The notes: generated from the letters alone by a model not told the origin. Numbered from the stretch's first letter, positions 18,612 to 41,056 are shown. The stretch is 64,000 nucleotides of DNA from an uncultured Eubacteriales bacterium (GCA_964645765.1 CAZYBE010000001.1:7456-71455), one strand, 5' to 3'. Program-made: numbers and translations.

Positions 18612-18845
18612 GGATCAGGCTGGGTGGTGAGAAAACCGTTTGAATAGCTCAGACAGCGTGGCTCGTCAGCACGCCGCTTTTGCCCCAGCGAGTCAAAAGC
18701 GGCTTGGTTCAAGGCTTCGCTCTCCTCTCCCTTCGGTTGAGGAACCATGCCCACTCAGCCTTTCACACGGCCTTCTCGCCACTCTGCCTTCGCCTTCTCT
18801 GTTTAATGCAAAGCCTGCGTGTTTTCAAACCACCCAGCCTGATCC
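18612..18845. repeat. Family-1 structured intergenic repeat, full-length copy A (234 bp, MITE-like)
   Basis: Terminal inverted repeats ggatcaggctgggtgg / ccacccagcctgatcc. Internal conserved hairpin gccgcttttgccccagcgagtcaaaagcggc and core ggcttcgctctcctctcccttcgg..gaggaaccatgcccactcagcc. Confidence 0.85.
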
Positions 18846-18851
18846 ATAATT

Positions 18852-19607
18852 TTAACTCTTCTTCTCGAACTCTTTTCCCTTGAGCATCTCCTGGGCCTGA
18901 GCTTTACAATCATCAACGCCAGAAAACCAACGAGAGTCAGAGGGCATGTTCAAAACGAATTCCAGTTCCTCCCTCGCTTTATCCACCTGCTTGAGCTCGA
19001 GATAGGTATCGGCCAAATAGATTCGAGTCACCGGGTCGTTTGGACCAAACTCCTTGGACTTGAGAAGATGCTCGAGCGACTTTTTATTATCTCCGCCGGC
19101 AAATCCTGGCAGCTTGAAATAGACTCTTCCCAGCACCCTGTCCGGACCTCCATCCTCGTAGGACCGTTCGATCTCGATGACCTTGTTCATCGCTTCCTTT
19201 ATGTCGTCGACTAAGAACAGGCTTTTTAAAACGCCTCTCGCCTCTCCATAGACTCCATAAACCACGCCGAGCCAGTAATAACCATCCGGCCTGTTGGGCT
19301 TCGATTCCACTGCCTTCTTGCCGTAATAGATTCCCTGTTCGAAAATTATCTTTTTATCCTTGTTTTTTTCTGTGTGAGACCCGATGTAATAGTGCATCCT
19401 GGCAATCTTCCAGTAGGCGTCATACTTATCATCGATTTTGAGAAGAGCGTCCATGTACTTTGATAAAGCTTCCCGGGCTGTGGCCATATCCTTCATCTCG
19501 GCATAGAGCGCATCGGCTTGGGCAATCAGCTCCTTGGCATCCTGACAGAAGAGAGAAAGAGAAATAGAAAAAAAGATAAAAACCAGAAAAAATATTTTTC
19601 CTCTCAT
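18852..19607 (-). CDS. TPR-like secreted/lipo-protein
   Basis: Start set at MRGKIFFLVFIFFSISLSLFC (signal peptide) with a GGAG SD. Helical repeat composition. Confidence 0.55.
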   Translation of the reverse strand: MRGKIFFLVFIFFSISLSLFCQDAKELIAQADALYAEMKDMATAREALSKYMDALLKIDDKYDAYWKIARMHYYIGSHTEKNKDKKIIFEQGIYYGKKAVESKPNRPDGYYWLGVVYGVYGEARGVLKSLFLVDDIKEAMNKVIEIERSYEDGGPDRVLGRVYFKLPGFAGGDNKKSLEHLLKSKEFGPNDPVTRIYLADTYLELKQVDKAREELEFVLNMPSDSRWFSGVDDCKAQAQEMLKGKEFEKKS

Positions 19608-19665
19608 CGGTACTCCTTTTTTCGAGTATATATAGCATATTTTTCCCGTCAAGGACAATAAGAAG

Positions 19666-20325
19666 CTACCCATAAAAACTGTCCGCCCTCTCATCCAGCT
19701 CGACCAAATAACGCTCAATCGTGCGGCGCAACGCCTCCAGCTCATCCTCGCTCAAGTCAGGAGGAACGGTAAAATGCTCTCCATAGATGGCAACCACTTT
19801 AGAAAACGGATAAAACATTAAGAATTTATCCCAGCTCTTCAAAAACTTTTTTTTGGAGGTCGAGAAGGTGAAAGGGACGAGAACAGCCCCACTCTCCTGG
19901 GCAAGCTTTATTCCCCCAAGCTTCATCTCCCGATTAGGCCCTCGAGGACCGTCAGGAACGATTATCAGCTCCCCTCCGCTCTGAAGCTCTTTTATCATCT
20001 CGCTCCAGGCTTTAATGATGGCATGAGAGCCTGAGCCCCTTAGAATCTTGTACCCCCACCTGAACATGACTTGGGCGGCTATCTCTCCATCCTTGCTGGG
20101 GCTGATGAGAGGCATAATTCCTCTGCGGCGAAAAAAATAAGGGACGATAAAAATCCGTCCGTGCCAGACCAAAAAAATTACAGGCTTCCCTTCTTCTCTC
20201 AATCTCTTGTAGTCTTCTTCTCCGACGATTTTCATCCGTGTGGATTTCGCCCACAGCCACAAAACCATTTTCCCCAAGGCGCCGACGAACTTCCAGCGTA
20301 GATTCTCGAGAAAAGACATCGGCAA
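19666..20325 (-). CDS. DUF374 / lysophospholipid acyltransferase-family protein
   Basis: 'VIFLVWHGRIFIVPYFF...PSKDGEIAA' matches the DUF374 (LPLAT superfamily) core. Confidence 0.7.
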   Translation of the reverse strand: MPMSFLENLRWKFVGALGKMVLWLWAKSTRMKIVGEEDYKRLREEGKPVIFLVWHGRIFIVPYFFRRRGIMPLISPSKDGEIAAQVMFRWGYKILRGSGSHAIIKAWSEMIKELQSGGELIIVPDGPRGPNREMKLGGIKLAQESGAVLVPFTFSTSKKKFLKSWDKFLMFYPFSKVVAIYGEHFTVPPDLSEDELEALRRTIERYLVELDERADSFYG

Positions 20326-20363
20326 AAATCATACATCAAATAAAGGGGACAGGCTACTTTTTT

Positions 20364-21845
20364 CTAAGAAAGTGGCCTGTCCTTTTTTCCCCATTTCTCA
20401 ATAGCTAAACCAGCGATAAATCCCACGAGGCCTAATCCCAGACCGTAGGGAACAGAGAAAGGCCAGGGAATCCAGTTCAGCGGAAGGAGCTTCATCTCAG
20501 ACAAAAACCCGAGTGAAGAAAAGCCTCCTCCAAAAACAAGGCTCAGAAGGCCGGCAAGGGGAAATTTTCTCTTAATAAAAATCATAGCCATGCCTGGAAT
20601 AAAAAGACCTTCTGCCATAATTTCCGAGGCAAGGCCGAGGGTTTTCAAGATACTCTGAAACCTGGCCGCAACGAGAAAAGCGAGCCCGCCGACAAGCAAA
20701 GTCGAGAGGCGACTGGCAAAAATAATCCCTTTTTCCCTGCTTAAAGGAAAGAGTTGCTGCCAGACATCTCGAGTCAGAGAAAGCGCCCCGGTGTTGATGG
20801 CTGCAGCCATGGTTGACATAATTGCTGCTACCACACCCACAAAAAGAACTCCTCTTAAAAAGAATCCGCTGCTCGAGGAGATGATCTCAGAGTAGAGAGG
20901 GTTGGCAAGTTTTCGAGAAGCAAAGAGGGGCAGAGAGAGCATGCCGGTCAAAACCACAGTCCCGTAGAGGAGGAAAAAAGTCACCGATGCAGAAAAGAGG
21001 GCTCCCCGGGCATCCTGGACGGTGCGAGCGGCTTTAATTCTCTGCCAGGCAATCGGCGAGATGGTCCAGGCCAGAGTGAAAGAAAGAACAATCAGGATGT
21101 TCTTTTTGAAGTCAAAGAAAAAATTGAAATACTGGCTTTTGCCTAGTCTTGAAGCGAGGAGAGAAACATCTTTTAGTGATGAAAGGCCGAAAAGAAAAAA
21201 GAGAAGGCTGAAAAGGCCGGCGACAATGAGAAAAAACTTGATACCGTCGGCAATGGCGACAGAACGAAGGCCTCCGAAGATAGAATAGATGAGCACCACA
21301 GCTGTTCCTAAAGCCAAGCTCTTGAGGTAAGACGTGCCCAAGAAGGACTTCAAGAAATGGCCGATGGCGACCATCTGGGATGCGGCCAGGACCGCCATGT
21401 ACCAGATGACCAGCAGCGAAGCAAGATGACGAACAGCCCGGCCATAGCGCATCTCGACCAGGTCGGGCAGGGAGACTAAGGGCAGCTGCCGGATCGGCCG
21501 GACTAAAAAAAGGCCGAGAAAAAGGACTGTCAGCATGGCGGGCACTCCCATAATCCAGAATGAGCTCAAACCTGCTTCATAGGCCTGGTCAGAAGAGACC
21601 AGAGTCGATGTTGCCCCGAACCAGGAAGCACAAAGCGTCAAATAGACTAAAAAGCCAGAAAGATTTCTGGAGGCGAGAAAAAAATCGACAATATCCTTCA
21701 TCCTCTTTGAGAAAATGAAGCTCATGAGGAGGAGAAAGGCGATGTAGGCAAGAAAAATAAAGAAAAACTCAACCTTCACAGCGCCACTTATAGCAAAAAC
21801 CCCTCTTGCTTGGCAAATTATTTCAATTTTTGGAGACCATTTCAT
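20364..21845 (-). CDS. Sodium:solute symporter (SSF) family transporter
   Basis: 493 aa and about 13 TM segments. N-terminal 'DFFLASRNLSGF' is typical of SSF proteins. Confidence 0.75.
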   Translation of the reverse strand: MKWSPKIEIICQARGVFAISGAVKVEFFFIFLAYIAFLLLMSFIFSKRMKDIVDFFLASRNLSGFLVYLTLCASWFGATSTLVSSDQAYEAGLSSFWIMGVPAMLTVLFLGLFLVRPIRQLPLVSLPDLVEMRYGRAVRHLASLLVIWYMAVLAASQMVAIGHFLKSFLGTSYLKSLALGTAVVLIYSIFGGLRSVAIADGIKFFLIVAGLFSLLFFLFGLSSLKDVSLLASRLGKSQYFNFFFDFKKNILIVLSFTLAWTISPIAWQRIKAARTVQDARGALFSASVTFFLLYGTVVLTGMLSLPLFASRKLANPLYSEIISSSSGFFLRGVLFVGVVAAIMSTMAAAINTGALSLTRDVWQQLFPLSREKGIIFASRLSTLLVGGLAFLVAARFQSILKTLGLASEIMAEGLFIPGMAMIFIKRKFPLAGLLSLVFGGGFSSLGFLSEMKLLPLNWIPWPFSVPYGLGLGLVGFIAGLAIEKWGKKDRPLS

Positions 21846-21847
21846 TA

Positions 21848-22132
21848 TCCGTGATATTAAAACGACTGCGAGGGTGAGGGTTTGGAGGTGAGGAGTCCCC
21901 TATGATGCTCAGGCCAGCGGGCTCAAAAACACGCAACTTTTGCCCCAGCGAGGCAAAAGTTGCTCGGTTTCAGGCTTCGCTCTCCTCTCCTTCGGAGAGG
22001 AACCATGCCCGCTCAGCCTTCAAACGATTTTTTCACCCGTTGGCCTTCGCAGGTACTATTTTCCTCGCTGGGGAAAATCAGCGTGCTCCGAACCTCCAAA
22101 CCCTCACCCATATCACGGAATTAGGGATGCTT
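21848..22132. repeat. Family-1 repeat, B-subtype copy (about 285 bp) in a divergent promoter region
   Basis: Inverted termini tccgtgatat...gagggtgagggtttggaggt / acctccaaaccctcaccc...atatcacgga. Contains the same conserved hairpin (cgcaacttttgccccagcgaggcaaaagttgc) and core, with a perfect ctcctctcc-TTCG-gagagga hairpin. Confidence 0.85.
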
Positions 22133-22178
22133 CCTGGCCTTCGCCATCACAATCTTAATATGCTATAATTCAGCTGCG

Positions 22179-22829
22179 ATGAAGAGCCTAATTTGCGTGC
22201 TGCTCCTTTCTCTGCTCGGCTTTTCTCAGACTGTGGAAGAGGTGGCACTTAAAGCAGAAGGAAAGCTCCGTTCTGTCCAATCTATCCAAGCTAATTTCGA
22301 ACAAACGCTTTACCCCTCCTCTCTCTCCACGCCTTTAAAAGAAAGAGGAAAGTTCTACTTTAAAAAGCCGGATTTTATGAGATGGGAGTATAAAGATCCG
22401 GAGGAAAAAATTTTTATCTATAAAGAAGACGCATTCCTCATCTACTATCCCGAAGACAAAGAGCTTATCAAGAGTGCGACGTCAAAAGAGATTTATGAGT
22501 CAGAAGTCCTCTCTCTCCTTTCAGGCAAGAAAAGCTTCTTGAATAATTACCTTGTCGAGTTCAGCCCTTTCCCTTCTGAGAATCAAAACACCTGGAAATT
22601 GAAATTGACTCCGAAGGAGGAGGACGAATACTCATCCATCCTCCTCGAAATCGACGAAAAAAGCTGGCTCATCCGAAAAGCCATTTTTTTTGACTGGAGC
22701 GGCAACAAATCTGAATTTCATTTCTCCCAAATAAAGACTAACCTCCCATTCCCTCAAAAGCTGTTTGAACTCGAATTGCCTGCGGACGTTGAGATTTTCA
22801 CAGATGGACCGGTCAAGAAGAGCAAATAA
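22179..22829 (+). CDS. LolA-like outer-membrane lipoprotein carrier protein
   Basis: Signal peptide; 'GKFYFKKPDFMRWEYKDPEEKIFIY' matches the LolA fold signature. Confidence 0.7.
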   Translation: MKSLICVLLLSLLGFSQTVEEVALKAEGKLRSVQSIQANFEQTLYPSSLSTPLKERGKFYFKKPDFMRWEYKDPEEKIFIYKEDAFLIYYPEDKELIKSATSKEIYESEVLSLLSGKKSFLNNYLVEFSPFPSENQNTWKLKLTPKEEDEYSSILLEIDEKSWLIRKAIFFDWSGNKSEFHFSQIKTNLPFPQKLFELELPADVEIFTDGPVKKSK

Positions 22830-22893
22830 AGCCAAAAAAAATCCCCTGGCAAAACCTTTCCCTTCTTTTTCCGTATCAACTCTTGAGGACAGG

Positions 22894-23466
22894 ATGTCCT
22901 CCATGGATGAAGATAAGAAACTCGTTGAAAGAACGATCAAAGGCGAGAAGGAGGCCTTTGAATTGATCATCCGCAAGTATCAACGGCCCTTGTTCAACTC
23001 CATCGGACGAATGGTTGGAGAAAGGGAGCTCGCCCTTGAATTCACCCAAGACGTGTTCTTAAAAACATACTCCTCGCTTCATACTTATCAGCCTCAGTAC
23101 AAATTCAGCACCTGGCTTTTCAAAATTGCCTCAAATTATGTTATCGATTTCTGGCGAAAGAAAAAAATCAACACTCTCTCCCTCGATGAACGGCAAGGCT
23201 CAAATGGCCACAACTGCGCTCTTGCGGTCGCAGCCGATGAAAAATCTATTATCCAGAAGTTCGAGATATCCCAGTTAAGGACAAAGATTGAAGATGTTTT
23301 AAAAGAGGTGCCTCCTCCGCTGAGAGAAGTCTTCATCTGGAGGCACATCAACGAGCTCAGCTATGAGGAGATTGCGGAAATCAAAGGCTTGCCTGTCGGC
23401 ACGGTCAAGACCAGAGTCTTTCAAGCCAAAGAATTAATCCGAAAGCTTCTGGAGGGAAAAAAATGA
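22894..23466 (+). CDS. ECF-subfamily RNA polymerase sigma-70 factor
   Basis: Region 2 'FLKTYSSLHTY...FSTWLFKIASNYVIDFWR' and region 4 'LSYEEIAEIKGLPVGTVKTRVFQA'. Confidence 0.9.
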   Translation: MSSMDEDKKLVERTIKGEKEAFELIIRKYQRPLFNSIGRMVGERELALEFTQDVFLKTYSSLHTYQPQYKFSTWLFKIASNYVIDFWRKKKINTLSLDERQGSNGHNCALAVAADEKSIIQKFEISQLRTKIEDVLKEVPPPLREVFIWRHINELSYEEIAEIKGLPVGTVKTRVFQAKELIRKLLEGKK

Positions 23467-24041
23467 AGTGCCTCAGCATTGAGCAGATTTATTTCTACAT
23501 CGAGAAGGAGCTTTCGCCGGCTCGAAACAGGGAAATCAAGGAGCATCTCGCTACCTGTCAAAAATGCAGGAATGCCTTTGAGGAGAGGAAGCTTCTGGTC
23601 AAGGCAGCGAATAGCCTGCCTCTCTGGGAAACGCCTCCGGAGTTCACCCGGAAAGTCATGGCCAGAATTGGCCCGGTCAAAACCCTTCCCTCTGCCTGGA
23701 TAAAAGCCGCAGCCGCAGCTCTGGCTTCAATCTCAGTGACGCTTCTCGTCATGTATCTTGCCACCGGTCAGAATCTTTCAACTCTCCTCCTCGGGTTGAA
23801 TCATGGCCTATGGAATTATGTCAGGAGTTTTCTGCCGGCCCTGCTCAAACTCTTCAAGGTCACTTCGCTCATTTTCGGAGTCATTCAGCAATTTACAGGA
23901 TATTTGCTCAAGGCATTTTCCTGGTTGAAAGCATTAACCAGTTTTCAAATCCAGTTGACCATTTCCATAATCGCCGTTATTTCGATTGCCATCCTTATCT
24001 ATGGCATAAAAAGAATAATACTCATTGGAGAAAAAACATGA
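23463..24041 (+). CDS. Anti-sigma factor (zf-HC2 zinc-finger type), membrane-anchored
   Basis: N-terminal 'HLATCQKCRNAFEE' HxxxCxxC motif, a TM segment, and an ATGA overlap with the sigma gene. Confidence 0.75.
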   Translation: MKCLSIEQIYFYIEKELSPARNREIKEHLATCQKCRNAFEERKLLVKAANSLPLWETPPEFTRKVMARIGPVKTLPSAWIKAAAAALASISVTLLVMYLATGQNLSTLLLGLNHGLWNYVRSFLPALLKLFKVTSLIFGVIQQFTGYLLKAFSWLKALTSFQIQLTISIIAVISIAILIYGIKRIILIGEKT

Positions 24042-24937
24042 AAAATAAAATCATATTGGCCCTCTTCCTTTTCTTCCTGGTTTTAAGCCCTCTCTCTCTC
24101 CAATGCCAGCAGAGTTTTACCCTGAAAAAAGATATTTATGTCGCTAAAGATGAAGTCCAGAATAACGTCGTCACTTTTGGGGGAGAGGTCCTTGTCGAAG
24201 GAAGAGTCAAAGAAAGCGTTATTGCTTTCGGCGGCAAAATAACCATTGCCGGCGAAGTCGGACACTTAGTTTTAGGATTTGGCACAAACATCCTTCTCAA
24301 GCCTACGGCAGTCGTCAAAGGAGATGTCGCCTCTTTGGGAGGCAGCCTCGAGAAAGAGTCAGGCTGCCGTGTCGATGGAGACACGATTTATTTCAAGACG
24401 TCGGAAGACACGAAGGAGCTGCTCAAGGAAGGTTTAAAAGGCATCTTGTCCATCTCCCTCTTTCCCATCTTCTTGATTTTTAAATTGCTCTCACTCTCCA
24501 TCTGGTTGCTCCTCGGAGTGCTCATGGCCGTGCTCTTCCCCCGCCAGATTTCTTCTGCCTCCAACCAGATCAGAAAATCTTTCTTGTCCGTCTTTGCCAT
24601 CGGCTTTGTCGCCATCATCATTTTCACCGGCCTGGCGGTCTTCTCCGCTCTTCTCTGCCTGATCTTGATCGGAATCCCCATGCTCCTGGCACTTATCTTC
24701 CTTGTCATCGTCATCCAAATCTTCGCCCGGGTTACCGTTTTCTACTTCTTCGGCGAAAGCCTTATGGCCGCCTTCGGAAAAAGCAAGCCCTCAGCCATCG
24801 CCGCTATACTCCTTGGCCTGGTTCTGGTCAGCCTCATCACCTTCATCCCAATCCTCGGTCTTCTCATCTCTTTCTTCCTGAGCATTATCGGCTGGGGAGC
24901 GACCTTAAAGACAAAGTTCGGAACAAAAGAGGGCTGA
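24038..24937 (+). CDS. Membrane protein with bactofilin-like beta-helical repeats (third gene of the ECF sigma module)
   Basis: Signal peptide. The repeats 'VVTFGGEVLVEGRVKESVIAFGGKITIAGEVGHLVLGFG' resemble bactofilin/polymer-forming cytoskeletal repeats. C-terminal TM helices. The start overlaps the anti-sigma stop codon (ATGA). Confidence 0.5.
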   Translation: MKNKIILALFLFFLVLSPLSLQCQQSFTLKKDIYVAKDEVQNNVVTFGGEVLVEGRVKESVIAFGGKITIAGEVGHLVLGFGTNILLKPTAVVKGDVASLGGSLEKESGCRVDGDTIYFKTSEDTKELLKEGLKGILSISLFPIFLIFKLLSLSIWLLLGVLMAVLFPRQISSASNQIRKSFLSVFAIGFVAIIIFTGLAVFSALLCLILIGIPMLLALIFLVIVIQIFARVTVFYFFGESLMAAFGKSKPSAIAAILLGLVLVSLITFIPILGLLISFFLSIIGWGATLKTKFGTKEG

Positions 24938-24951
24938 TTCAGCGGCGAAAG

Positions 24952-26730: not shown

Positions 26731-26839
26731 ACTCTATCTCATCTCCTTGAGAAAGACGAATAGCATAGCACAAAAATTTTGTCAAAAGCCCAGTCATCAA
26801 TTTTATTAAGGAAGCATGCGGAAATCCATAATAAGAGCC

Positions 26840-26961
26840 GGGTCAGGCTGGATGCTTGAGAAAACCGTTTGAAGGCTGCGGCTTAATGGCTCGAAAACAC
26901 GCCATTCAGCCTCCGCAAGTGGGCAAAGCCTGCGTGTTTTCGAAAGCATCCAGCCTGACCC
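26840..26961. repeat. Family-1 repeat, internally deleted copy C (122 bp)
   Basis: TIRs gggtcaggctggatgctt / aagcatccagcctgaccc. Subterminal segments match copy A (gagaaaaccgtttgaa ... gcaaagcctgcgtgttttc) but the central core is absent. Confidence 0.8.
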
Positions 26962-27006
26962 ATAACCAGGTTTTCTATCACGGAAAAAAGATGCTATCAT
27001 TTCTTG

Positions 27007-27035: not shown

Positions 27036-27099
27036 TTAACAAATCAATCTCTTAGGTGAAAAAGGCATTTACTATAAAATCCCTTTTTAAGGAGGTCAC

Positions 27100-29517: not shown

Positions 29518-29579
29518 CTTTATCCCTATTTATTTCCTGAACACCGTCACGCCGTTAATATAAACATAATATTTCATCT

Positions 29580-29694
29580 ATCATCGCGAGGAGCGGAGCG
29601 ACGTGGCGATCTCATCAAACTAAGAGATTGCCACGCCCTTCGGGCTCGCAATGACAGGCTCATCACCACGCTCCCTCTGGTCGCTCGCCATGAC
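29580..29694. repeat. Family-2 palindromic hairpin element (composite, 115 bp) in the pyrH-frr intergenic region
   Basis: Arms aTCATCGCGAGGagcggagcgaCGTGGCGATCTCAT / GAGATTGCCACGccCTTCGggCTCGCAATGAC, plus a third related arm. Confidence 0.8.
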
Positions 29695-29721
29695 TATGTA
29701 ACAAAATTCATTGCGTCTATA

Positions 29722-32849: not shown

Positions 32850-33542
32850 TCAATGAACCCAGACTCTTGCTCTTCTCCTTCTCATAAAAACTTTGACCAG
32901 GGCGATTCCAATCAAGAAACCGCCGACATGAGCAAACCAGGCTACGCCGCCTCCAATGCCGATATTCATCACCTGGCCCACAAACCAAAGTCCGAGAACG
33001 ATAAAAGCGGGCACAGGAATAATCCAGATAAAAACAAGGGTCAAAACCCTTGCCGCCGGGTAGAGGACAAAATAGGCACCGAGCACACCGGCAATGGCAC
33101 CGCTGGCTCCAATCATCGGGACCTTGGAAGAGGGATGGAAGATGATGTGAACAAGGCTCGCCCCCAATCCTGAGATAAGATAGAAAAAAATAAATCGAAT
33201 TGACCCGAGAAAATCCTCGATATTGTTGCCGAATATCCAGAGGTAGAGCATATTGCCGAAAAGATGGAGGAAGCCACCGTGAAGGAACATCGCTACGAGG
33301 AGTGTCAAAGGAGGAGATATTCGAGCGAGAGAGCCTCCCTGAAAACGAATATCGACAGAAGTGAAATGCGTGAGCTCGTAAGGAATGGCCCCCATCTTGT
33401 AAACATAGTATTGAAGCCCATACTGCATTCCCTGGGGAGAAAAAAATTGATAGAGGAAGATTAAGATATTCGCTGCGATAAAGACAACAGTGATTAAAGG
33501 AAATCGAGAAGTAGGGTTTTCATCTTTAAGCGGAATAAACAT
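32850..33542 (-). CDS. Rhomboid family intramembrane serine protease
   Basis: 'GASGAIAGVLGAY' catalytic Ser motif and an 'AHVGGFLIG' His helix. Confidence 0.85.
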   Translation of the reverse strand: MFIPLKDENPTSRFPLITVVFIAANILIFLYQFFSPQGMQYGLQYYVYKMGAIPYELTHFTSVDIRFQGGSLARISPPLTLLVAMFLHGGFLHLFGNMLYLWIFGNNIEDFLGSIRFIFFYLISGLGASLVHIIFHPSSKVPMIGASGAIAGVLGAYFVLYPAARVLTLVFIWIIPVPAFIVLGLWFVGQVMNIGIGGGVAWFAHVGGFLIGIALVKVFMRRRRARVWVH

Positions 33543-33603
33543 TTTTTATGGATTATGAAGGGAAAACTATCAAAAATTTATTTTGAAAGAAAGGTTTTTC
33601 TTC

Positions 33604-34629: not shown

Positions 34630-34731
34630 CCTGACCTCCTTTGTCTTCAAGTCCATTCTTCTCTAAAAATTTAATTTATAAAAATATGCCATCAAAGTCA
34701 AGAAAAACAGGGAGTTGCACTCTTCCCCGAT

Positions 34732-36057
34732 TCAGCCCTTTCTCATGAGCAAGCGGATGGGCGTTCCCCAGAAACCAAACTTTTCCCGCAAAAGTTTGGT
34801 GAAAAATTTCTGATAGGAAGGAGCAAGGGATAGCCGCGAAGAACTGAAGAGGGCAAATGTCGGAGGGAGGGTTCCCTTTTGAGTCATGTATTTTATCCTG
34901 AATCTTTTCTTGTCTTTTGAGAGAGGGGAATAATTCTTGTTCACCCCAGATAAAAATCTGTTCAGCTGCGATGTTGCTACTCTTTTGCACCCGTTCCGGT
35001 AGACTTGCTCGGCGAAGTCAAGAATATTTATAACTCTTTGCCCGGTTAGAGCCGAGATAAAGAGAAGGGGCGCGTAACTGACAAAGTCGAGCCTGGCATA
35101 AACTCGGTTCCTAAAATTCTCTGAAGTCTTATGGTCTTTCTCGACCAAATCCCACTTGTTCAGGGCAATGAGTAACGGTCTCCCCGATTCATGGGACAAA
35201 TGGGCGATGGCCAAATCTTGACGGGTGGCAAATTCCCTGGCATCCATGGTCAAGCAAACAACATCCGCCTGGGTGATATCCTTCTTGGCTTTGATGATAC
35301 TCGCCTTTTCTCTTCTATCGCGGGTGCGGATCAGTTTCTTTATTCCTGCGGTATCGACCAGGACGAAAGCTTTTTTCTCCCTGAAGATCATAGTATCGGT
35401 GCTATCCCTGGTCGTTCCAGGAATCTCACTAACGATGAGCCTCGGCTCCCCGCAGATGCGGTTGACGATAGAAGATTTTCCGACATTGATCCGGCCGACA
35501 ATGGCTATCCGCAGCGGCTTTGTTTCCCTTTTTTCTGTAACAGGCCCGGGCAAGACTTCAATAAGGCCTGACTCAAGAATCTCCAGATTTCTTTTATGCT
35601 CGGCTGATATGGCAAAGATTTTCTCCGCTCCCAGCCGGTAATAATCGCCAAGCTTGGCTTCCTCGGGTGGAGTATCGATCTTGTTGACCACGACAAAAAC
35701 CGGCTTGTTCAACTTTTTCAAAGAAAAATAAAGCTCCTCCTCTGCCGGAAGGAGTTCGCGCTTTCCATCCAGGACAAAAAGGACAAGGTCTGCCTTCTCG
35801 GCAGCCTGCTTTGCCTTTTCTCTGACCAAAGACGAGATGGGGTCTTCTGCAGAATCGTAAAATCCTCCGGTATCAACCAGGATAAACTTCTTTGTGTCCA
35901 AGAAGCAGATGGAAGAGACCTGGTCGCGGGTCATGCCGGGCAAGGAATGAACAAGCGATTTGCGCTCTTTCGAAAGACGGTTAAAGAGGGTGGATTTCCC
36001 GACATTGGGGAAGCCGATGATGGCAACATTCGGTAGTTTTTTCATCGAGAAGCTCAT
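34732..36057 (-). CDS. der: Ribosome biogenesis GTPase Der (EngA)
   Basis: Two tandem GTPase domains ('GFPNVGKSTLFNRL' and 'GRINVGKSSIVNRI') plus a KH-like C-terminus. Confidence 0.95.
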   Translation of the reverse strand: MSFSMKKLPNVAIIGFPNVGKSTLFNRLSKERKSLVHSLPGMTRDQVSSICFLDTKKFILVDTGGFYDSAEDPISSLVREKAKQAAEKADLVLFVLDGKRELLPAEEELYFSLKKLNKPVFVVVNKIDTPPEEAKLGDYYRLGAEKIFAISAEHKRNLEILESGLIEVLPGPVTEKRETKPLRIAIVGRINVGKSSIVNRICGEPRLIVSEIPGTTRDSTDTMIFREKKAFVLVDTAGIKKLIRTRDRREKASIIKAKKDITQADVVCLTMDAREFATRQDLAIAHLSHESGRPLLIALNKWDLVEKDHKTSENFRNRVYARLDFVSYAPLLFISALTGQRVINILDFAEQVYRNGCKRVATSQLNRFLSGVNKNYSPLSKDKKRFRIKYMTQKGTLPPTFALFSSSRLSLAPSYQKFFTKLLREKFGFWGTPIRLLMRKG

Positions 36058-36083
36058 CCTTTTTCAGGTCAAGAATGCAGAGG

Positions 36084-36662
36084 CTAATCCGCCACCAAAT
36101 CGTAAAGCGGCAGAAAAGGTCGGCTCAGGTTGATATGGCCACTCAGTGTTTCTCTCTCCTGCCCTTCGATCAGGATGAAGACTTTTTTGATCGAATCAAA
36201 ATTGTAAGCGAGGGAATTGACTATAGAATAAACCGTGGAAATTTCAGCCGTGGAGCCTGAAAGATTCTTCTGGACAATATCCTCTGAAAAATCGACATAG
36301 GCCACTCCCTCCTTGGTCAGATAGAGCTCTCTCAGCTTTGTCTCTGGAGGAACCGGGGAGATCAGGCCCTTCTTGGAGCCTTTTATCAGCTCCTCGATGG
36401 TTTGCTTGGCCTGGCTAACAACGGACGAGTCCGAAGCTATATCTCTTTCTTCCCGATGGAGCAGGGCATCATTTTCTGAGAGGAAAAAGAGGATAACTTT
36501 TCTTGTTTTTTCAGGCGTTGGAGCTTTCAGCCCAGGTTGAGCAGGGGGAGCCTCAGGAGAGGATTTTATCTTCTCCTCCACTCCGCTGCGGAAAAAAACA
36601 AGGACAAGAATGACCAAGAAAACAAGGAGAAGGCTTAGAATTGCCAGTCTTTTCCCGCTCAT
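36084..36662 (-). CDS. GerMN-domain protein
   Basis: N-terminal TM. 'AYVDFSEDI...TLSGHINLSRP' resembles the GerMN domain. Translationally coupled to the amidase gene. Confidence 0.5.
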   Translation of the reverse strand: MSGKRLAILSLLLVFLVILVLVFFRSGVEEKIKSSPEAPPAQPGLKAPTPEKTRKVILFFLSENDALLHREERDIASDSSVVSQAKQTIEELIKGSKKGLISPVPPETKLRELYLTKEGVAYVDFSEDIVQKNLSGSTAEISTVYSIVNSLAYNFDSIKKVFILIEGQERETLSGHINLSRPFLPLYDLVAD

Positions 36663-37486
36663 CTTTTCCCTTCTTCAGAAGATTGAGCAATATAATTTTC
36701 CAAACCTCTAAACACTGCCTGAGCAACTTTCATCTGAAAATCTTCGCTCCTTAATTTTCTCTCCTCTTCAGGGTCAGAAATAAAGGCCACTTCAACCAGG
36801 ACCGCAGGACAGGCCACCCCGCATAAGACTTTAAACGGCGCCTGCTTGATTCCTCTGTTCTTTGTTAAGAAGAGTGAGTTGAGCTCGTTCTGGATGCCTT
36901 CAGCAAGAATGCTGCTTTGGTTGAGGTAGGCGGTCTGAGCCATGTCCCATAAAATCATCTTAATGTCATCTTCGTTTTCGCTGCTGATTCCCTTCTCTAA
37001 TTCTGTGGGATTGTTCTCCATGTAAGCCAACTTTCTCGCTTCTTCGTCAGTCGCTTCCATGCTCAGAAAAAATGTCTCCGACCCGCGAGCTTCTCTGCGA
37101 AAAGAGCTGTTGACATGAATGCTGATGAACAAGTCAGCCTTGTTGTTATTGGCCCTGGCCGCTCTATTTTCAAGGGAAACATCGACATCTTCATCTCTGG
37201 TCAGAACGACCCGAAGAGCCAAATTCCGCTCTATTATAGCTTTCAGCTTGAGGCTGACAGCCAGAGAAATGTTCTTCTCCAGAGTTCCAAACCTGCCTTT
37301 TGCTCCTGGTTCCAAGCCGCCGTGGCCCGGGTCAATGACGATGGTTTTTATCCCCCGAGAGAAAGAGTTACTCGGTTTTGAGATATCTTGGGCTTTCGGA
37401 GAGGATTGGTCTTGAGAAAAGGAGAAGAGAGAGAAGAAGAGAAGAAATCCTGCTGAGAATGCAATTTTTTTATTCCAGCCACACAA
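36659..37486 (-). CDS. N-acetylmuramoyl-L-alanine amidase (Amidase_3, AmiC/CwlD-like)
   Basis: 'IVIDPGHGG...GAKG' and 'DLFISIHVNSS' zinc-binding motifs. Confidence 0.85.
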   Translation of the reverse strand: MCGWNKKIAFSAGFLLFFSLFSFSQDQSSPKAQDISKPSNSFSRGIKTIVIDPGHGGLEPGAKGRFGTLEKNISLAVSLKLKAIIERNLALRVVLTRDEDVDVSLENRAARANNNKADLFISIHVNSSFRREARGSETFFLSMEATDEEARKLAYMENNPTELEKGISSENEDDIKMILWDMAQTAYLNQSSILAEGIQNELNSLFLTKNRGIKQAPFKVLCGVACPAVLVEVAFISDPEEERKLRSEDFQMKVAQAVFRGLENYIAQSSEEGKR

Positions 37487-37516
37487 TTCTTTTCTTTGTC
37501 TCTCAGAGATTAAATT

Positions 37517-37864
37517 TGGAGGCGGCGGGAATCGAACCCGCGTCCGAAGACATTCAACACGAGGCTTCTACATGCATATCCTCTCCTTCAATCTCGTTCT
37601 GCAGCGTCCGAAGAGGAGGGACACAGCCGAACCAGCCCCGATGGAACTTCGCTTGCCAGGCCCAGGACCAACCCGGCTTGCTATCCCGCTTGTCGACGTT
37701 TCTCAAGCGCCGCAGGAGAGCACTTGAAAACCGGCATGCCTATTCTTTAGGCAGCAACAGGCAGAGTTTCTGCGCTTAGTTTTTTTTCCACCGTTTAACG
37801 AGGTGGGTGGGACCTCGACATGCCGCCTTTGTCTCATTGTCTCCGTCGAATCCTGTTCGCCCCC
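37517..37864 (-). ncRNA. ssrA: tmRNA (transfer-messenger RNA)
   Basis: 5' GGGGGCGAACAGGATTCGACGG and 3' tRNA-like end ...GGACGCGGGTTCGATTCCCGCCGCCTCCA. An internal reading frame ends ...GAA ACT CTG CCT GTT GCT GCC TAA, giving a tag that ends ...ETLPVAA. CCA is not encoded. Confidence 0.9.
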
Positions 37865-37960
37865 ATAACTCAAGCTAAGATTATATTTTGACCTGAAATC
37901 TTTGTCAACACATTGAATTTCAAAGGAACGATCTTTCTTTCCGTGGTGAAAAGCCTCGTT

Positions 37961-38113
37961 ATGGATCAGGCTGGGTGTCTCGAAGACACGCCGCTTTTGC
38001 CCCAGCGAGTCAAAAGCGGCTCGATTCCAGGCTTCGCTCTCCTCTCCCTTCGGTCGAGGAACCATGCCCGCTCAGCCCTCCATACGGTCTTCTCAACACC
38101 CAGCCTGATCCAT
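37961..38113. repeat. Family-1 repeat, copy D (about 153 bp), adjacent to the tmRNA 5' end
   Basis: Perfect 17-bp TIRs atggatcaggctgggtg / cacccagcctgatccat. Conserved hairpin and core. Confidence 0.85.
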
Positions 38114-38165
38114 TTCATACCACGAATTTGCGGATTCTTCTAATTTTAAATATTAAAAACGAATT

Positions 38166-39029
38166 CTACTTAACTGCCCTCATACACAATTGAAGGGGAA
38201 GGAAAAACCTGGAAAGAAATCTTTGCGGCTTTTTTGGCAGCCATTCAAGCATTGCCTCTGCGGTCTTAAAATAACAAAATGGAATTCTTACATACTTCTT
38301 ATTCAGCTTCCTGTTTATCCGCCAGAATCCGTCCCATGAAGTAAAATTCACCCGCTTGAGTATTTCCTCAACCTCTGAATACGTCCATTCTTTCAGGTGG
38401 AACCCCTCTGGCTCATCTGAAAAATATTTAGAGATATCATGAGGCCCGAAAAAAGCATGGGGCGTTCTGAATATATACGAACCGCCACTGAGGAGAATTC
38501 TTTTCACAAGCCAAAAATGGTCTTCGATATCTTCAGGATGGAGATGCTCGATAAGCTGGTCACTGAAGGCAACATCAACTGAATCGCTTTCGATGTCCAG
38601 GTTAAAGCCGTCGTAAATAATCAATTCGAAGTTCGCTGGGACATGAAGTTTTTCCAGTCTTTGATCGGAAATATCCACGGCGTAGACTTTCTTGACATGT
38701 TTGCAAACCTCGAAAGCAAAATGACAATCTCCAGGGCCAAATTCAACAAAAATAGTGGAATCATTCAGGTGCTCCTTCACCAACTGCAATTTCTGTCTGT
38801 TAGAAGCTCGGATTTCATCAATACCTTTCTTTGCCTTATTCCTGGGATGATCGGGAACATTTGTGAAAAGCTCATCATACAAAACAGGAAAAAGCTTTTT
38901 TCTCTCTTCTCTATTAGCTTTTTTTAATTTCATTGCAATAGAACTTTCGACTTCATAATGCCTTCTCACCTCTTCAAAAGTCCTGTCTCTCGGAAGTTTC
39001 CTTTTTAGCTTCATTGAATCTTTTGACAT
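38166..39029 (-). CDS. Class I SAM-dependent methyltransferase
   Basis: Motif I 'VEFGPGDCHFAFEV' and motif II 'VYAVDISD'. Confidence 0.7.
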   Translation of the reverse strand: MSKDSMKLKRKLPRDRTFEEVRRHYEVESSIAMKLKKANREERKKLFPVLYDELFTNVPDHPRNKAKKGIDEIRASNRQKLQLVKEHLNDSTIFVEFGPGDCHFAFEVCKHVKKVYAVDISDQRLEKLHVPANFELIIYDGFNLDIESDSVDVAFSDQLIEHLHPEDIEDHFWLVKRILLSGGSYIFRTPHAFFGPHDISKYFSDEPEGFHLKEWTYSEVEEILKRVNFTSWDGFWRINRKLNKKYVRIPFCYFKTAEAMLEWLPKKPQRFLSRFFLPLQLCMRAVK

Positions 39030-39152
39030 GGATGGAAGATTAATTTTCTGTTCATAAGAGAAATTTGGAAGAAGGCCTTTCCATTTCTTCTTGTTATTCT
39101 GTTTACTCGGCGGGAGAATATCAATTCGTTAGATAAGAGTCAACATTGGGAA

Positions 39153-39230
39153 TGGCGGGGCCGACGAGACTCGAACTCGCGACCTCTGGCGTGACAGGCC
39201 AGCGTTCTAACCAAACTGAACTACGACCCC
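39153..39230 (-). tRNA. tRNA-Asp (anticodon GTC), CCA encoded
   Basis: GGGGTCGTAGTTCAGTTTGGTTAGAACGCTGGCCTGTCACGCCAGAGGTCGCGAGTTCGAGTCTCGTCGGCCCCGCCA, with anticodon loop CTGTCAC. Confidence 0.9.
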
Positions 39231-39301
39231 GCCGCAGGGTAATAAAATTATAGTCACAACATACCAGAGTTGCAATAGTTTTGTAGGTAATGAATACACT
39301 T

Positions 39302-39337
39302 GAGATTGCCACGCTCCCTTCGGGAGCTCGCAATGAC
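39302..39337. repeat. Family-2 element, half copy (right arm only) next to tRNA-Asp
   Basis: GAGATTGCCACGctCCCTTCGGGagCTCGCAATGAC matches the right arm of the 29580 element. The UUCG-capped mini-hairpin is preserved. Confidence 0.7.
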
Positions 39338-39362
39338 GACACAGAGCAAAAAAGAAAGAGCC

Positions 39363-40262
39363 CTACATTTTTTCAAGGGCAGCGATTCTTGCCTCGACGG
39401 GAGGATGAGTGCTGAACATGTTGTTGACCGCTCCCTTCAAATCCTTGAGCGGGTTGACGATGTAGAGATGGGCTGTCGCCTTGTTGGCTGCCTCCAGAGG
39501 CTCGGTGTCAGCGGCAATCTTCTTCAAAGCAGAGGCAAGGCCAGGAGGATAGCGGGTGAGAAAAGCGCCGTTGGCATCAGCCAGGAATTCTCTCTTGCGG
39601 GAAATGGCAAAGCGAATGACCTGGGCGATAAGCGGAGAAAGAACAGCCAGCACAAGTCCGGCCACAACCAGTATGGCAGCAGCATTGCCGCCTTTTCCCC
39701 TATTGGTTCTTGCTCTTCTCCTCCCTCCTCCCCAGAAAAAACTCCTGAGAATCCAGTCGCTGAGCAAGGCAACGACTCCGACCATGACCACGGCCAAGGT
39801 CTGAACGAGGACATCGTAATTCTTGATGTGGGACATCTCATGGGCAATCACCCCTTCGAGCTCCACCCTGTTCAGTTTCTGGAGCAAGCCTTTGGTGACG
39901 ACGACGACTGAATTTTTCGGGTTTCTACCCGAGGTGAAAGCATTGGGCGCAGTGTCATCGATAATATAACAGCGAGGCTTGGGCAGGCCGGCGGCAATAG
40001 CCAGGCCTTCAACGACATTGTAGAGATAAGGATAATCTTGCTTCTCAACCGGCTTGGCCCGGCTCATGGCCAGAACGATTTTATCGCTGTAATAATAACT
40101 GGCAAAAGTCGAGGCCACAGCGATGATGGCGGCCAGAATCAATCCCTGAGTTCCGAAGCCTGTCAGCTCTCCAAAAAGCCAGGCCAAAAGAAAAACCCAG
40201 CTAAGAAAAAACAGAATAAGAAAGAACGATTTCCATTTGTTTCGGGCAATCTGTTCATACAT
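39363..40262 (-). CDS. htpX: M48-family zinc metalloprotease (HtpX homologue)
   Basis: 'GVIAHEMSHIKNYD' HExxH motif with four TM segments. Confidence 0.9.
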   Translation of the reverse strand: MYEQIARNKWKSFFLILFFLSWVFLLAWLFGELTGFGTQGLILAAIIAVASTFASYYYSDKIVLAMSRAKPVEKQDYPYLYNVVEGLAIAAGLPKPRCYIIDDTAPNAFTSGRNPKNSVVVVTKGLLQKLNRVELEGVIAHEMSHIKNYDVLVQTLAVVMVGVVALLSDWILRSFFWGGGRRRARTNRGKGGNAAAILVVAGLVLAVLSPLIAQVIRFAISRKREFLADANGAFLTRYPPGLASALKKIAADTEPLEAANKATAHLYIVNPLKDLKGAVNNMFSTHPPVEARIAALEKM

Positions 40263-40280
40263 CCTGAATTCGGTCGGCGA

Positions 40281-40835
40281 TTAAAACTGCACTTTCACCG
40301 GTCCCTTGGCTTCAGCTTCCTCAATCTCAAAATATTCTTTTTCCTTGAAGTTAAACATCCCGGCGATGATGTTGGAAGGGAAAACCTGCTGTTTGACGTT
40401 AAACTTCATCACCGAGTCATTGTAGAATTGCCGGGCATAGGCAACCTTTCCTTCTGTTCCGGCCAGCTCCTCCTGGAGCATCAAGAAATTCTGGTTGGCT
40501 TTGAGCTCAGGATAGTTCTCAACGACAGCAAAAAGAGATTTCAAAGCTCCTCTGAGCATATTCTCAGCTTCCCCTTGTTCTTTAACTGACTCGGCGTTCA
40601 TGGCCTTGGAACGGGCTTCAGTGACCCTCTGGAAAACTTCCCTTTCGTGCTTGGCATAGCCCTTGACGGTCTCCACCAAGTTAGGGATAAGGTCGTACCT
40701 TCGCCTCAACTGGACATCAACCTGGGCCCAAGCGTTGTCGCATCGATTCCTCAAACCAATCAGGCTGTTGTAGAAACCGACAAAGATGATCACGATGACA
40801 ACCAAGGCAATGAGTAAGATCAATGCAATTCCCAT
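40281..40835 (-). CDS. LemA family protein
   Basis: Start at MGIALILL (TM). '[25 protein letters not shown]' is the LemA signature. Paired with htpX. Confidence 0.85.
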
Positions 40836-40905
40836 ATTTGTCTCCTCAAAAGCGAAAAATTTTATCCTAAATAATAAACTATTTTGAAAGGCAAAAGTCA
40901 AATAC

Positions 40906-41056
40906 GGGGCTCAGGCTAAGCTGTGAGAAAACACGCAGCTTTTGTCCCGGCGAGACAAAAGCTGCTCGGTTTCAGGCTTCGCTCTCCTCTCCCTTCGGTC
41001 GAGGAACCATGCCCGCTCAGCCCTCAAACGGTTTTCTCACAGCTTAGCCTTCGCCC
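40906..41056. repeat. Family-1 repeat, copy E (about 151 bp) in a divergent promoter region
   Basis: TIRs ggctaagctgtgagaaaac / gttttctcacagcttagcc (19 bp perfect). The hairpin carries compensatory changes (cgcagcttttgtcccggcgagacaaaagctgc), and the conserved core is present. Confidence 0.85.

Follow-up and report, generated by a model that had tools for sequence, protein, structure and literature searches.

The Correia elements of Neisseria (NEMIS/CREE) are MITEs of ~100–160 bp that duplicate only TA and whose conservation lies in their ends. REPs are 20–40 nt long, carry a GTAG head, lie mainly at gene 3′ ends, are associated with RAYT genes, and leave no target duplication. For BOX and ERIC/IRU elements, we know of no described three-way junction with invariant loops. 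The IS66 family is known mostly from Proteobacteria. Its hallmarks are inverted repeats of 20–30 bp starting with GTAAGCG and direct repeats of 8 bp (PMC11946415).

Aminicenantes are abundant and uncultured, and the literature searched holds no report on their mobile or structured non-coding DNA. The DNA analyzed here, a stretch of 64,000 nucleotides (the window), had been described in an earlier note as carrying a dense, modular family of MITE-like repeats, family 1. Such a family is present: mechanical repeat detection recovers it (repeats D1, D2, and D5; inverted pairs I7, I8, I10, and I12, with 89–92% complementarity), a covariance model matches it, and deleted forms are seen. It is not a single family, however; a second family, defined by outer repeats, had been merged in, and the real ends carry duplications of 8–10 bp in many copies.

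Family-1 Modules in the Window

Copies are built alike, with an outer inverted repeat, a hairpin whose loop (CCCCAGCGAG) is conserved, and a conserved core, GGCTTCGCTCTCCTCTCC...GAGGAACCATGCCCGCTCAGCC. In our model, the ~150-nt family-1 unit folds as a three-way junction. P1 is the long closing stem, P2 is a 9–10-bp hairpin with the near-invariant loop CCCCAGCGAG, and P3 is a near-invariant bipartite hairpin with the asymmetric loop AACCRTGCCC. A covariance model was seeded with 42 family-1 copies and the window was searched with cmsearch, filters off. Four full copies were found, all matched on the + strand at 141–167 bits. Six equivalent copies had been counted before; four of these hold full modules, whereas 26840–26961 is core-less and 61426–61611 is not a member (see below). 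The modules and their fragments are as follows.

37962–38111, model match on + with − the better-folding strand: family-1 module, cmsearch 167 bits
40907–41055, model match on +, feature strand −: family-1 module, cmsearch 165 bits
21905–22051, model match on +, feature strand −: family-1 module in the center of the 21832–22134 composite, cmsearch 156 bits
18645–18794, model match on +: family-1 module inside the long form 18612–18845, cmsearch 141 bits
~26840–26961, − strand: core-less family-1 shell with P1 arms only, no P2 loop or P3, cmsearch 54 bits
4144–4172, no strand: solo arm of the family-1 P1 stem (TGCGTGTTTTTTCACCACCCAGCCTGAGC), direct repeat D4, inverted pairs I5, I13, and I18
14535–14555, no strand: minimal palindrome GGGTCAGGCT-A-AGCCTGACCC of 21 nt, two P1 tips, cmsearch 12.7 bits

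RNA folds of the 37962–38111 module reach −70.2 kcal/mol on the + strand and −88.9 kcal/mol on the − strand (z-scores of −6.9 and −8.6, respectively). The module at 40907–41055 occupies the spacer that separates the divergently oriented genes for LemA and citrate synthase; here, as in many copies of the GCTC...TTCGC type, an outer inverted repeat or target duplication is not recognizable. Alignment identifies the orthologous spacer of a related MAG (L095:1528–1768), which lacks the module, as an empty site; the pair is syntenic at 77–83% amino-acid identity, the flanking gene DNA is ~70% identical, and the species differ. Pfam assigns the genes flanking the copies to SSF/LolA, PEPCK/SPFH, and LemA/citrate synthase, in agreement with the neighbors named previously (SSS/lolA, pckG/SPFH, lemA/citrate synthase).

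Three short stretches had been taken for terminal remnants. The first is a solo P1 arm (4144–4172) and the second a palindrome of two P1 tips (14535–14555); the third, 17499–17555, is no remnant of family 1 and is treated with the composites. The palindrome is followed by a T-run, is terminator-like, and is located after the ORF 13052–14515. It may represent a footprint, or else a seed hairpin.

Fold, Covariation, and Strand

The sequences of P1 and P2 differ between copies, and the changes are strongly compensatory. The hairpin variants gccgc/gcggc, gcagc/gctgc, and gcaac/gttgc had been quoted correctly, and the claim of compensation that was built on them is borne out. The covariation score of the seed alignment is 0.262 versus 0.088 when shuffled (0/500 shuffles reach it), in a test that related sequences may pass against shuffles even when no structure exists. 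Slid-partner controls, which retain relatedness, score 4–6 times lower than the true pairing, and on the seed alignment they give 0.045–0.083. Two-sided changes occur in 25 pairs (203 cells) of the seed alignment, and a larger, model-fitted alignment shows covariation in 43 of 49 pairs. One P2 pair shows all four Watson-Crick pairs (GC 31, AU 30, CG 27, UA 15). Copies were collected by searching for an exact core 18-mer, which inflates the apparent conservation of that 18-mer but not conservation elsewhere (the 3′ half of P3 lay outside the search pattern); the majority-base frequency is 0.94 in the P2 loop and in the 3′ half of P3, and 0.74–0.78 in the P1 arms.

TC/TC mismatches are conserved as internal loops at three or four sites. 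The UUCG-capped stem, described earlier as conserved, is not, as its loop length and sequence vary freely across copies. There is no conserved ORF, and an SD-ATG-like stretch in P3 runs into frameshifting indels between copies, which marks the element as non-coding. An Rfam 15 search of the window reached gathering scores only for tmRNA and two tRNAs, and a permissive search over a single copy gave only noise (E ≥ 0.75), hammerhead and other three-way-junction ribozymes included. The family thus matches no described Rfam family at gathering or permissive thresholds.

The strand described in the earlier note is the poorer folder. Its reverse complement is more stable in 77/77 copies, by a mean difference of −16 kcal/mol with RNA parameters. 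On this reverse strand (G-rich, − in the window), the TC/TC loops become tandem G-A pairs. On the model strand, A-C mismatches outnumber G-U (97 versus 32), counts that are made up of non-independent events. When DNA energy parameters are used, fold stability is almost equal on the two strands, and the strand call therefore rests mainly on RNA-type energetics and the mismatch counts. G-U pairs are rare (about 1–3% of cells, ~1% on the model strand), so covariation alone is no argument for RNA. Selection at the RNA level and selection at the DNA level both stand as readings.

Composite Elements and Target Duplications

The TCAGGCT repeats, previously regarded as terminal inverted repeats, were rejected as transposition termini. 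They form the internal stem P1, and its boundaries lack a target duplication (the mean length of the longest direct match is 3.64 nt, versus 3.61 nt in the control). The mobile unit often extends beyond the family-1 module: many copies have outer inverted repeats of ~25 nt with target duplications of 8–10 bp. The outer repeats read GTAAGCATC...TTCCGTGAT (consensus G[G/T]AAGCATC..TTCCGTGAT; 17–24/26 positions match). An intact unit bounded by these ~25-nt terminal inverted repeats measures 185–420 nt, and the duplicated target is AT-rich. The larger elements and derivatives in the window are listed here, none with an assigned strand.

37924–38141: complete composite MITE of 218 nt, outer inverted repeat AGGAACGATCTTTCTTTCCGTGGTGA / TCATACCACGAATTTGCGGATTCTTCT enclosing a family-1 module
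21832–22134: three-layer composite, family-1 module central, inverted pair I14
18612–18845: long form, inner module 18645–18794 within a second, oppositely oriented P1-type stem, I12
26810–26998: outer inverted-repeat shell (GGAAGCATGCGGAAATCCATAATA... / ...TATCACGGAAAAAAGATGCTATC) enclosing the core-deleted family-1 shell 26840–26961
61426–61611: MITE with outer inverted repeats only (GGGGAAGATCCTAAATTCCGTGATA / TATCACGGAATTTAGGATGCTATC), GC-rich palindromic interior unrelated to family 1
17482–17555: half element from the right side of a 21832-type composite, comprising an intermediate repeat arm and the outer right inverted repeat

An 8-bp target duplication lies on either side of the complete composite, AATTTCAA (37916–37923) and AATTTTAA (38142–38149), with 7/8 positions matching. 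The composite is 95% identical over 218 nt to L084, a copy at an unrelated locus, and its flanks were aligned with those of sister copies. The stretch 21848–22132 had been listed as a family-1 copy, which is right for its center; the whole is a composite with outer inverted repeats at 21832–21856 and 22110–22134 and an intermediate pair at 21872–21895 / 22086–22109. No clear target duplication was visible in the flanks inspected around 21832–22134. The half element at 17482–17555 is 88% identical to 22061–22134 (D3; I16 agrees), which identifies the supposed remnant 17499–17555 as the right end of an outer composite. In the long form, the arms of the second stem lie at 18612–18644 and 18795–18845, and this shell scores 54 bits in cmsearch on the − strand; the architecture recurs in at least 12 loci. 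The element at 61426–61611 has a perfect 8-bp target duplication (CTATTTAA, 61418–61425 and 61612–61619). It was rejected as a family-1 copy (cmsearch 10.7 bits, E 1.2; no blastn match) and has only the outer inverted repeat, which is distinct from that of family 1, in common with 21832–22134.

About a dozen copies have target duplications of 8–10 bp, including several perfect ones. Those of 9 bp include the perfect duplications of L059 (AAGCTCAAC) and L106 (CAAAAAAGA) as well as L057 (TTGTGCAGA), L064 (TTTCTTGAG), and L063 (GTTTTTAGG); L015 (GTCATCAA), like 61426, has 8 bp and L084 (AATATTATGC) has 10 bp. Outer inverted repeats of this one kind surround very divergent junction variants (e.g., L059, L095). 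Family-1 modules nest in one another and lose parts by deletion, and nested, long-form, and core-deleted derivatives are all seen.

The outer ends GTAAGCATC and GGAAGCATC (~25 nt) carry 6/7 of the IS66 signature. No autonomous element or transposase bounded by these inverted repeats was found in ~720 kb of Aminicenantes loci, where the repeats never form a pair spaced 0.5–4 kb apart. A metagenome scan for an autonomous element with these ends returned chance matches, and the sole 2.2-kb pair encloses an FG-GAP protein.

Range and Genomic Placement

Across at least 21 Aminicenantes MAGs, the family counts no fewer than 95 true copies, at loci unrelated to one another. Most mobile units carry the internal ~150-nt junction module. 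The preference for divergent promoter regions proposed from the window extends to the larger set: among 107 copies, 29 lie in divergent and 3 in convergent gene spacers, and convergent spacers hold only 3 of the 70 classifiable copies. Orientation shows no preference relative to genes (20 co-directional versus 18 opposed) and no bias relative to local GC skew (47 versus 46). Such random orientation fits a selfish element rather than a cis-acting RNA. In the window, insertions are seen directly upstream of the −35 boxes of the tmRNA and lemA promoters.

Discussion

The repeats are an undescribed lineage of non-autonomous DNA transposons (MITEs) that is confined to Aminicenantes. On balance, we favor, as somewhat probable, the reading in which their folded core is under selection as a cis-acting platform for the element's own propagation. 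The elements would be mobilized in trans by a DDE transposase; the start of the terminal inverted repeats and the length of the duplications point to the IS66 family. Selection on a folded single strand may maintain the junction module; the likeliest strand is the G-rich one (− in the window), where the conserved TC/TC loops would form tandem sheared G-A pairs. Our committed guess for its role is that of the platform: intrastrand pairing would bring the two element ends together, and the transposase or a host factor would recognize the near-invariant P2 loop and P3. Such a role would explain why there is constraint on stem complementarity and not on stem sequence. The core is more conserved than the transposon ends, which is atypical for MITEs, and the module could have a function, or a mobility, of its own.

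We regard as rather unlikely a reading of the three-way junction as functional structured RNA, be it a ribozyme, a small RNA, or a signal for processing or cis-regulation; such an RNA would be carried by the MITE or exapted from it, and selection would act at the RNA level. Invariant loops with covarying stems are the classic signature of functional RNA, and the pattern persists over deep divergence, including variants with 73–75% GC (L019, L050). One strand is far more stable with RNA parameters (by −16 kcal/mol on average, in 77/77 copies), the conserved loops there become tandem G-A pairs, a common RNA motif, and the excess of A-C over G-U on the model strand corresponds to wobble pairs on the reverse strand, where P2 followed by GCGUGUUUUC resembles an intrinsic terminator and could set a 3′ end. 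However, G-U pairs at about 1–3% of cells are scarce for an RNA family, the element contains no conserved promoter, Rfam yields no match, and with 20 versus 18 gene orientations, read-through from host genes would yield the poorer-folding strand at every second copy. A pseudoknot is also without covariation support, as the loop variants CCTTAGTGAG (L090, L095) lack partner changes elsewhere. A broader claim, that the ~150-nt junction represents a new class of functional folded nucleic acid riding on Aminicenantes MITEs, we judge unlikely. It might take the form of a structured RNA (ribozyme, protein-sponging RNA, or transposon-control RNA) or of a strand-specific single-stranded-DNA signal, with a dedicated protein reading the near-invariant P2 loop and P3, and it would explain both the conservation of the interior above the ends and the presence of one core within several different outer shells.

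Quite unlikely, in our estimate, is a fold without function, in which palindromic DNA acquires a compensatory look from a few subfamily masters and from arm-to-arm correction, whether through gene conversion inside the palindrome or through templated repair within a strand, and the core only looks conserved because the copies are young and were picked by an exact 18-mer. Strict Watson-Crick complementarity with few G-U intermediates is what DNA-level correction would give, many copies per genome fall in common subfamilies so that the counted events are not independent, and the caveat on shuffle tests of related sequences applies. Yet the slid-partner controls score 4–6 times lower despite their retained relatedness, a single P2 pair shows the four Watson-Crick types in comparable numbers, and the TC/TC mismatches, which arm-to-arm correction should remove, persist. 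Moreover, in one and the same set of copies the stems have diverged by 20–25%, whereas the P2 loop and the 3′ half of P3, both outside ascertainment, stand at 94%, and youth alone is thus not enough for the conservation of the core. Very improbable is an independently mobile ssDNA hairpin element (REPIN-like or IS200/IS605-PATE-like) moved by an HUH (Y1) enzyme, although landing in other palindromes would explain both the nesting and the P1 boundaries without target duplications. HUH nick sites likewise combine a conserved loop with a variable stem, further inverted repeats are enriched in the flanks (18/64 copies versus 11% in the control), and at six loci other small palindromic elements are inserted exactly after the P2 loop CCCCAGCGA(G). 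Against this, replication-coupled ssDNA transposition should give an orientation bias where we count 47 versus 46 relative to GC skew, neither flank has a conserved tetranucleotide, the REP-type GTAG head is absent, no Y1 transposase was seen, and the composite clearly uses its outer inverted repeats to move, leaving target duplications.

An interior fold conserved above the ends is the inverse of the usual MITE pattern, and ~100 diverged copies with strong covariation offer a comparative data set on selection for transposon-borne structure. The covariance model and the outer-repeat signature let annotators mask or label about 2% of such genomes. Insertions upstream of −35 boxes, as at tmRNA and lemA in the window, may rewire promoters. 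If the RNA reading were true, the junction would be a new phylum-wide RNA class.

Among described systems, family 1 resembles Correia elements in its inverted repeats, its intergenic and promoter-adjacent placement, the long hairpin it would form if transcribed, and the coexistence of full and deleted forms, but Correia elements have neither the invariant three-way-junction core nor the nesting hierarchy of family 1. With BOX and ERIC/IRU, it shares modular, non-coding, structured intergenic repeats whose variants arise by insertion at fixed internal sites; those elements belong to other phyla, are unrelated in sequence, and are without a demonstrated shell of inverted repeats and target duplications. 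REPs, BIMEs, and REPINs offer a parallel in mosaic palindromic units that alternate in orientation, in correlated hairpin changes, and in serving as insertion targets. A REP/REPIN identity was nevertheless rejected, as family 1 has no GTAG head, avoids convergent 3′ spacers (3/70), and has an outer shell that duplicates 8–10 bp; an IS200/IS605-derived PATE identity was likewise rejected, given the inverted repeats and duplications, the lack of a fixed flank, and the lack of skew bias. IS66 differs from the outer shell in the seventh base of the repeat, several duplications here are perfect at 9 bp, and TnpA/B/C were not found with these ends. The likeness to IS66, a candidate parent family, lies in the length of the outer repeats (~25 nt), in their start (GTAAGCA or GGAAGCA), and in duplications of 8–10 bp, compared with 8 bp for IS66 (PMC11946415).

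A Structured Module and a Second, Outer Repeat Family

The family-1 repeat is real and far above chance. Its common hairpin and core can be read in four of the six copies claimed in an earlier note, and mechanical repeat detection recovered the same four (direct repeats D1, D2, and D5), with terminal inverted pairs (I7, I8, I10, and I12) of 89–92% complementarity. A covariance model, proposed in that note as a check, was built from 42 diverse copies (seed alignment A5, model R1) and run across the window with filters off. It returned four full matches of 141–167 bits and one core-less shell.

37962–38111, + strand: full family-1 match
40907–41055, + strand: full family-1 match
21905–22051, + strand: full family-1 match
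18645–18794, + strand: full family-1 match
26840–26962: core-less shell, 54 bits

The 61426 element scored 10.7 bits (E = 1.2). When each claimed copy was compared with the window by blastn, 61426–61611 matched only itself, and alignment revealed that all it has in common with the ends of 21832–22134 and with 17482–17555 is a distinct outer inverted repeat (..ATCCTAAATTCCGTGATA..). By model, blastn, and alignment, the claimed "at least six copies" come down to four, with one shell besides, and two loci represent a second, outer family.

The palindrome at 14535–14555 (GGGTCAGGCT-A-AGCCTGACCC, then a T-run) consists of two family-1 outer-stem tips placed head to head. It resembles an intrinsic terminator after ORF 13052–14515 and may be a footprint left by excision or deletion, or the type of hairpin from which the stem grew.

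Conservation of Pairing and of Unpaired Loops

Folding and alignments define the module as a three-way junction. Stem P1 has ∼27 pairs and corresponds to the terminal inverted repeats of the earlier note. P2 is a 9–10 bp hairpin capped by CCCCAGCGAG. P3 comprises GGCT/AGCC, GC/GC, and CCTCTCC/GGAGAGG with a 10 nt asymmetric loop, AACCRTGCCC; its terminal loop varies freely in length and sequence. When RNAalifold was given 85 copies in an uncleaned MAFFT alignment, indels threw the outer stems out of register, so that P3 alone was recovered; a hand-defined structure on the cleaner seed alignment took its place.

In the seed alignment, 85% of cells form a standard pair, and changes on both sides occur at 25 pairs (203 cells). 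The covariation score was 0.262, compared with 0.088 for shuffled alignments (0 of 500 reached the observed value) and 0.045–0.083 for slid partners, which bears out the compensatory stem changes described previously. The covarying pairs lie in P1 (20) and P2 (5), with none in P3. The larger alignment, fitted to the model, shows covariation at 43 of 49 pairs, with one pair in P2 found as GC (31), AU (30), CG (27), and UA (15). The majority-base frequency is 0.94 in the P2 loop and 0.94 in the 3′ half of P3 plus the asymmetric loop (the P2 loop and the 3′ half of P3 lie outside the search pattern), as against 0.74–0.78 in the P1 arms and 0.81–0.82 in the P2 stems. The interior is better conserved than the ends, the reverse of the usual transposon pattern. 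In GC-rich variants (L019 and L050, from other assemblies, and the JAWODN01 copies), almost all stem bases have been replaced, while the fold and the invariant parts persist.

A pseudoknot pairing the P2 loop with the core or J2/3 was not found, as loop variants occur without a compensating partner; reading both strands by eye gave no hammerhead-like core (CUGANGA/GAAA) around the junction. A small ORF in P3, suggested by GGAGAGG-AACC-ATG as an SD and start codon, was rejected: the start position may be A, G, T, or C, and a 1 nt indel farther on changes the frame between copies.

The Folding Strand

On the strand read in the earlier note, three conserved 2×2 internal loops (P1a, P1b, and P3a) are 5′-TC/5′-TC, and the common P3b variant, CCTC-TC-CC..GG-TC-GAGG, has a fourth. 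Read from the complement, these loops become 5′-GA/5′-GA, the stable tandem sheared G-A motif, flanked in every case as Y-GA-R. Well-paired columns hold 97 A-C mismatches (wobbles on the other strand) versus 32 G-U, although the events so counted are not independent of one another. Under RNA parameters, all 77 copies folded more stably as the reverse strand; the gain averaged 16 kcal/mol, or 9 kcal/mol when G-U pairs were disallowed. Under DNA parameters, the two strands differed little. These features suggest, with moderate confidence, that selection acts on one single strand, the window's − strand. Because G-U pairs are rare throughout, covariation alone does not indicate RNA. On the − strand at 40935–40965, and at the equivalent site of other copies, a conserved GCGUGUUUUC comes after the P2 hairpin, giving an intrinsic-terminator-like score. 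Because P1 uses this U-tract as its 3′ arm, the terminator and P1 would compete.

The Outer Shell and Its Target Duplications

The TCAGGCT repeats had been taken for the element's termini, a role that P1 does not fill: no target duplication was detected at its boundaries, where the longest direct flank match averaged 3.64 nt versus 3.61 nt for mismatched flank pairs. These flanks are enriched in further inverted repeats. The outer shell has inverted repeats of ∼25 nt (G[G/T]AAGCATC..TTCCGTGAT; ends GTAAGCATC..TTCCGTGAT), and alignment of the flanks placed within it GATCAGG-type copies, several long forms, and the very divergent L059 and L095 variants.

Target duplications at outer-shell boundaries (L numbers, loci from other assemblies)
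L059: AAGCTCAAC, perfect, 9 bp
L106: CAAAAAAGA, perfect, 9 bp
L084: AATATTATGC
L015: GTCATCAA
L057: TTGTGCAGA
L064: TTTCTTGAG
L063: GTTTTTAGG
L023: 7/8
L030: 7/8
L147: 9/10
Window 61426–61611: CTATTTAA, perfect
Window 37924–38141: AATTTCAA / AATTTTAA

The shell also carries other interiors, a GC-rich palindrome at 61426 and that of L147:1399–1650, a true outer-shell MITE found in the metagenome scan. The long form (18612–18845; at least 12 loci) holds the module inside another P1-type stem, which is oriented the opposite way, and a blastn-short repeat search resolved three layers in L030 and L052: outer repeat, reversed P1 shell, and module. The shelled copy at 26810–26998 has lost P2 and P3. 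One empty site is provided by L095, from a related MAG, an orthologous spacer without the 40907 insertion, both flanking genes of which have 77–83% protein identity. The lineage is of MITE type, having inverted repeats, target duplications, and nested and deleted derivatives. A metagenome scan with AAGCATCNNNNNNTTCCGTGAT for a parent transposase gave 120 loci, almost all chance matches, and a paired-repeat search in 720 kb of Aminicenantes loci yielded MITE-sized units only; neither revealed a transposase. The 2.2 kb repeat pair of L202 was discarded as an autonomous parent, as it encloses an FG-GAP protein.

P2 seems to be a nested-insertion hot spot. A hairpin-rich element of ∼145 nt, matching no Rfam family, is inserted directly after the P2 loop CCCCAGCGA(G), at one fixed point, and at least five MAGs carry it; it is either a site-specific insertion into the hairpin loop or a spreading subfamily. 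Members of another subfamily, from several MAGs, have a small palindrome, AAAATGGGGCCnnGCCCCATTT, in place of P2 or within it, in some cases as a double unit. A third, unrelated intergenic family has two GC-rich hairpins (..CATCGCGAGGAGCGGAGCGACGTGGCGATCTCAT.. and ..CCACGCTCC-loop-GCTCGCCATGAC..), its copies being 77–86% identical (direct repeats D9, D10, and D14).

L053:10–153; L028:3618–3757; also L016, L017, L033, and L067: P2-loop insertion
L007; L029:2716–2936; L051:4078–4261; L076:2298–2518: palindrome AAAATGGGGCCnnGCCCCATTT
Window 29576–29721; 48554–48668; fragment 39309–39337: third family

Placement near Promoters

Flanking ORFs were called for 107 copies with the elements masked. Divergent genes flanked 29 copies and convergent genes 3; tandem genes were co-directional with the folding strand at 20 and opposed at 18. 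Insertion in divergent spacers, as originally noted, therefore holds: 5′ regions are preferred and 3′-3′ spacers avoided. There was no orientation preference relative to transcription in the tandem contexts and, in a test for single-stranded DNA transposition, no bias relative to local GC skew (47 versus 46).

Two window insertions, the 37924 and 40907 units, abut −35 boxes.

37880–37908, − strand: tmRNA promoter TTGACA-17-TATAAT, a perfect sigma-70 consensus, 16 nt upstream of the tmRNA 5′ end (37864)

The MITE end at 37924 is 16 nt from this promoter, at its UP-element position, and the 40907 unit adjoins a lemA −35-like TTGACT, read from the sequence and conserved in L095. Target duplications are AT-rich, which would explain the promoter-proximal bias. 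At four non-orthologous loci (L021, L103, L046, and window 40893–40906), the left boundary reads AAAGTCAA(A)TA, the reverse complement of which, TTGACTTT, is −35-like; the motif is present in the L095 empty site. The element may thus have a target preference for promoter −35/UP regions.

Distribution

Scanning one genome per species with the core 18-mer GGCTTCGCTCTCCTCTCC gave at least 108 loci. By eye, 14 of the matches listed are chance hits in unrelated phyla; the remainder are true copies, all, among the matches listed, in Candidatus Aminicenantes MAGs, at least 21 of which carry them. Among these matches, the family is confined to Aminicenantes. In 720 kb of these loci, cmsearch made 121 matches and added only a handful of copies lacking the exact 18-mer; the core is therefore truly conserved, not merely selected by the search. 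Viral contigs gave five chance 18-mer matches, none fitting the model. No Rfam family matched at gathering or permissive thresholds, and a literature search found no account of these repeats. The element is an undescribed, structured, nested MITE.

Many MAGs titled "uncultured Eubacteriales" (CAZGMN01, CAZJYC01, CAZJXZ01, CAYTBG01, and CAYTTR01 series) carry this Aminicenantes-specific repeat. They include the source of L095, which is syntenic with the window (77–83% protein identity). Their taxonomic label looks wrong.

What the Fold May Do

The original observation was thus confirmed in part and its interpretation, selection on secondary structure, supported in part. We infer that a folded single strand is under selection and that a DDE transposase, perhaps an IS66-family enzyme, mobilizes the element in trans. 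Our committed guess is that the junction acts in cis as a platform for the element's own propagation: stem pairing would draw the two ends of the element to each other, and a putative transposase or host factor would bind the invariant loops. We favor this because orientation is random, no promoter is conserved, and the core is retained in all of the different shells. Chief among the rivals is a functional RNA carried by the MITE, which accords with the pattern of invariant loops and varying stems and with the strong strand asymmetry under RNA energetics, but fits poorly with random orientation and the scarcity of G-U pairs. If the junction is a functional RNA or a single-stranded DNA signal, the interest of the element is raised.

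A palindrome that drifts while one arm corrects the other, with no function for the fold, does not account for unpaired loops that stay invariant, TC/TC mismatches that persist, or the four-way pair variation in a 10 bp hairpin. A single-strand mechanism of HUH or REPIN type is not supported either, there being no skew bias and no fixed flank, whereas the outer shell makes target duplications. An inverted repeat starting GTAAGC and an 8 bp duplication are hallmarks of the IS66 family (PMC11946415). The start of the outer repeat and the duplication resemble this hallmark, a likeness that we treat as a lead and not as membership.
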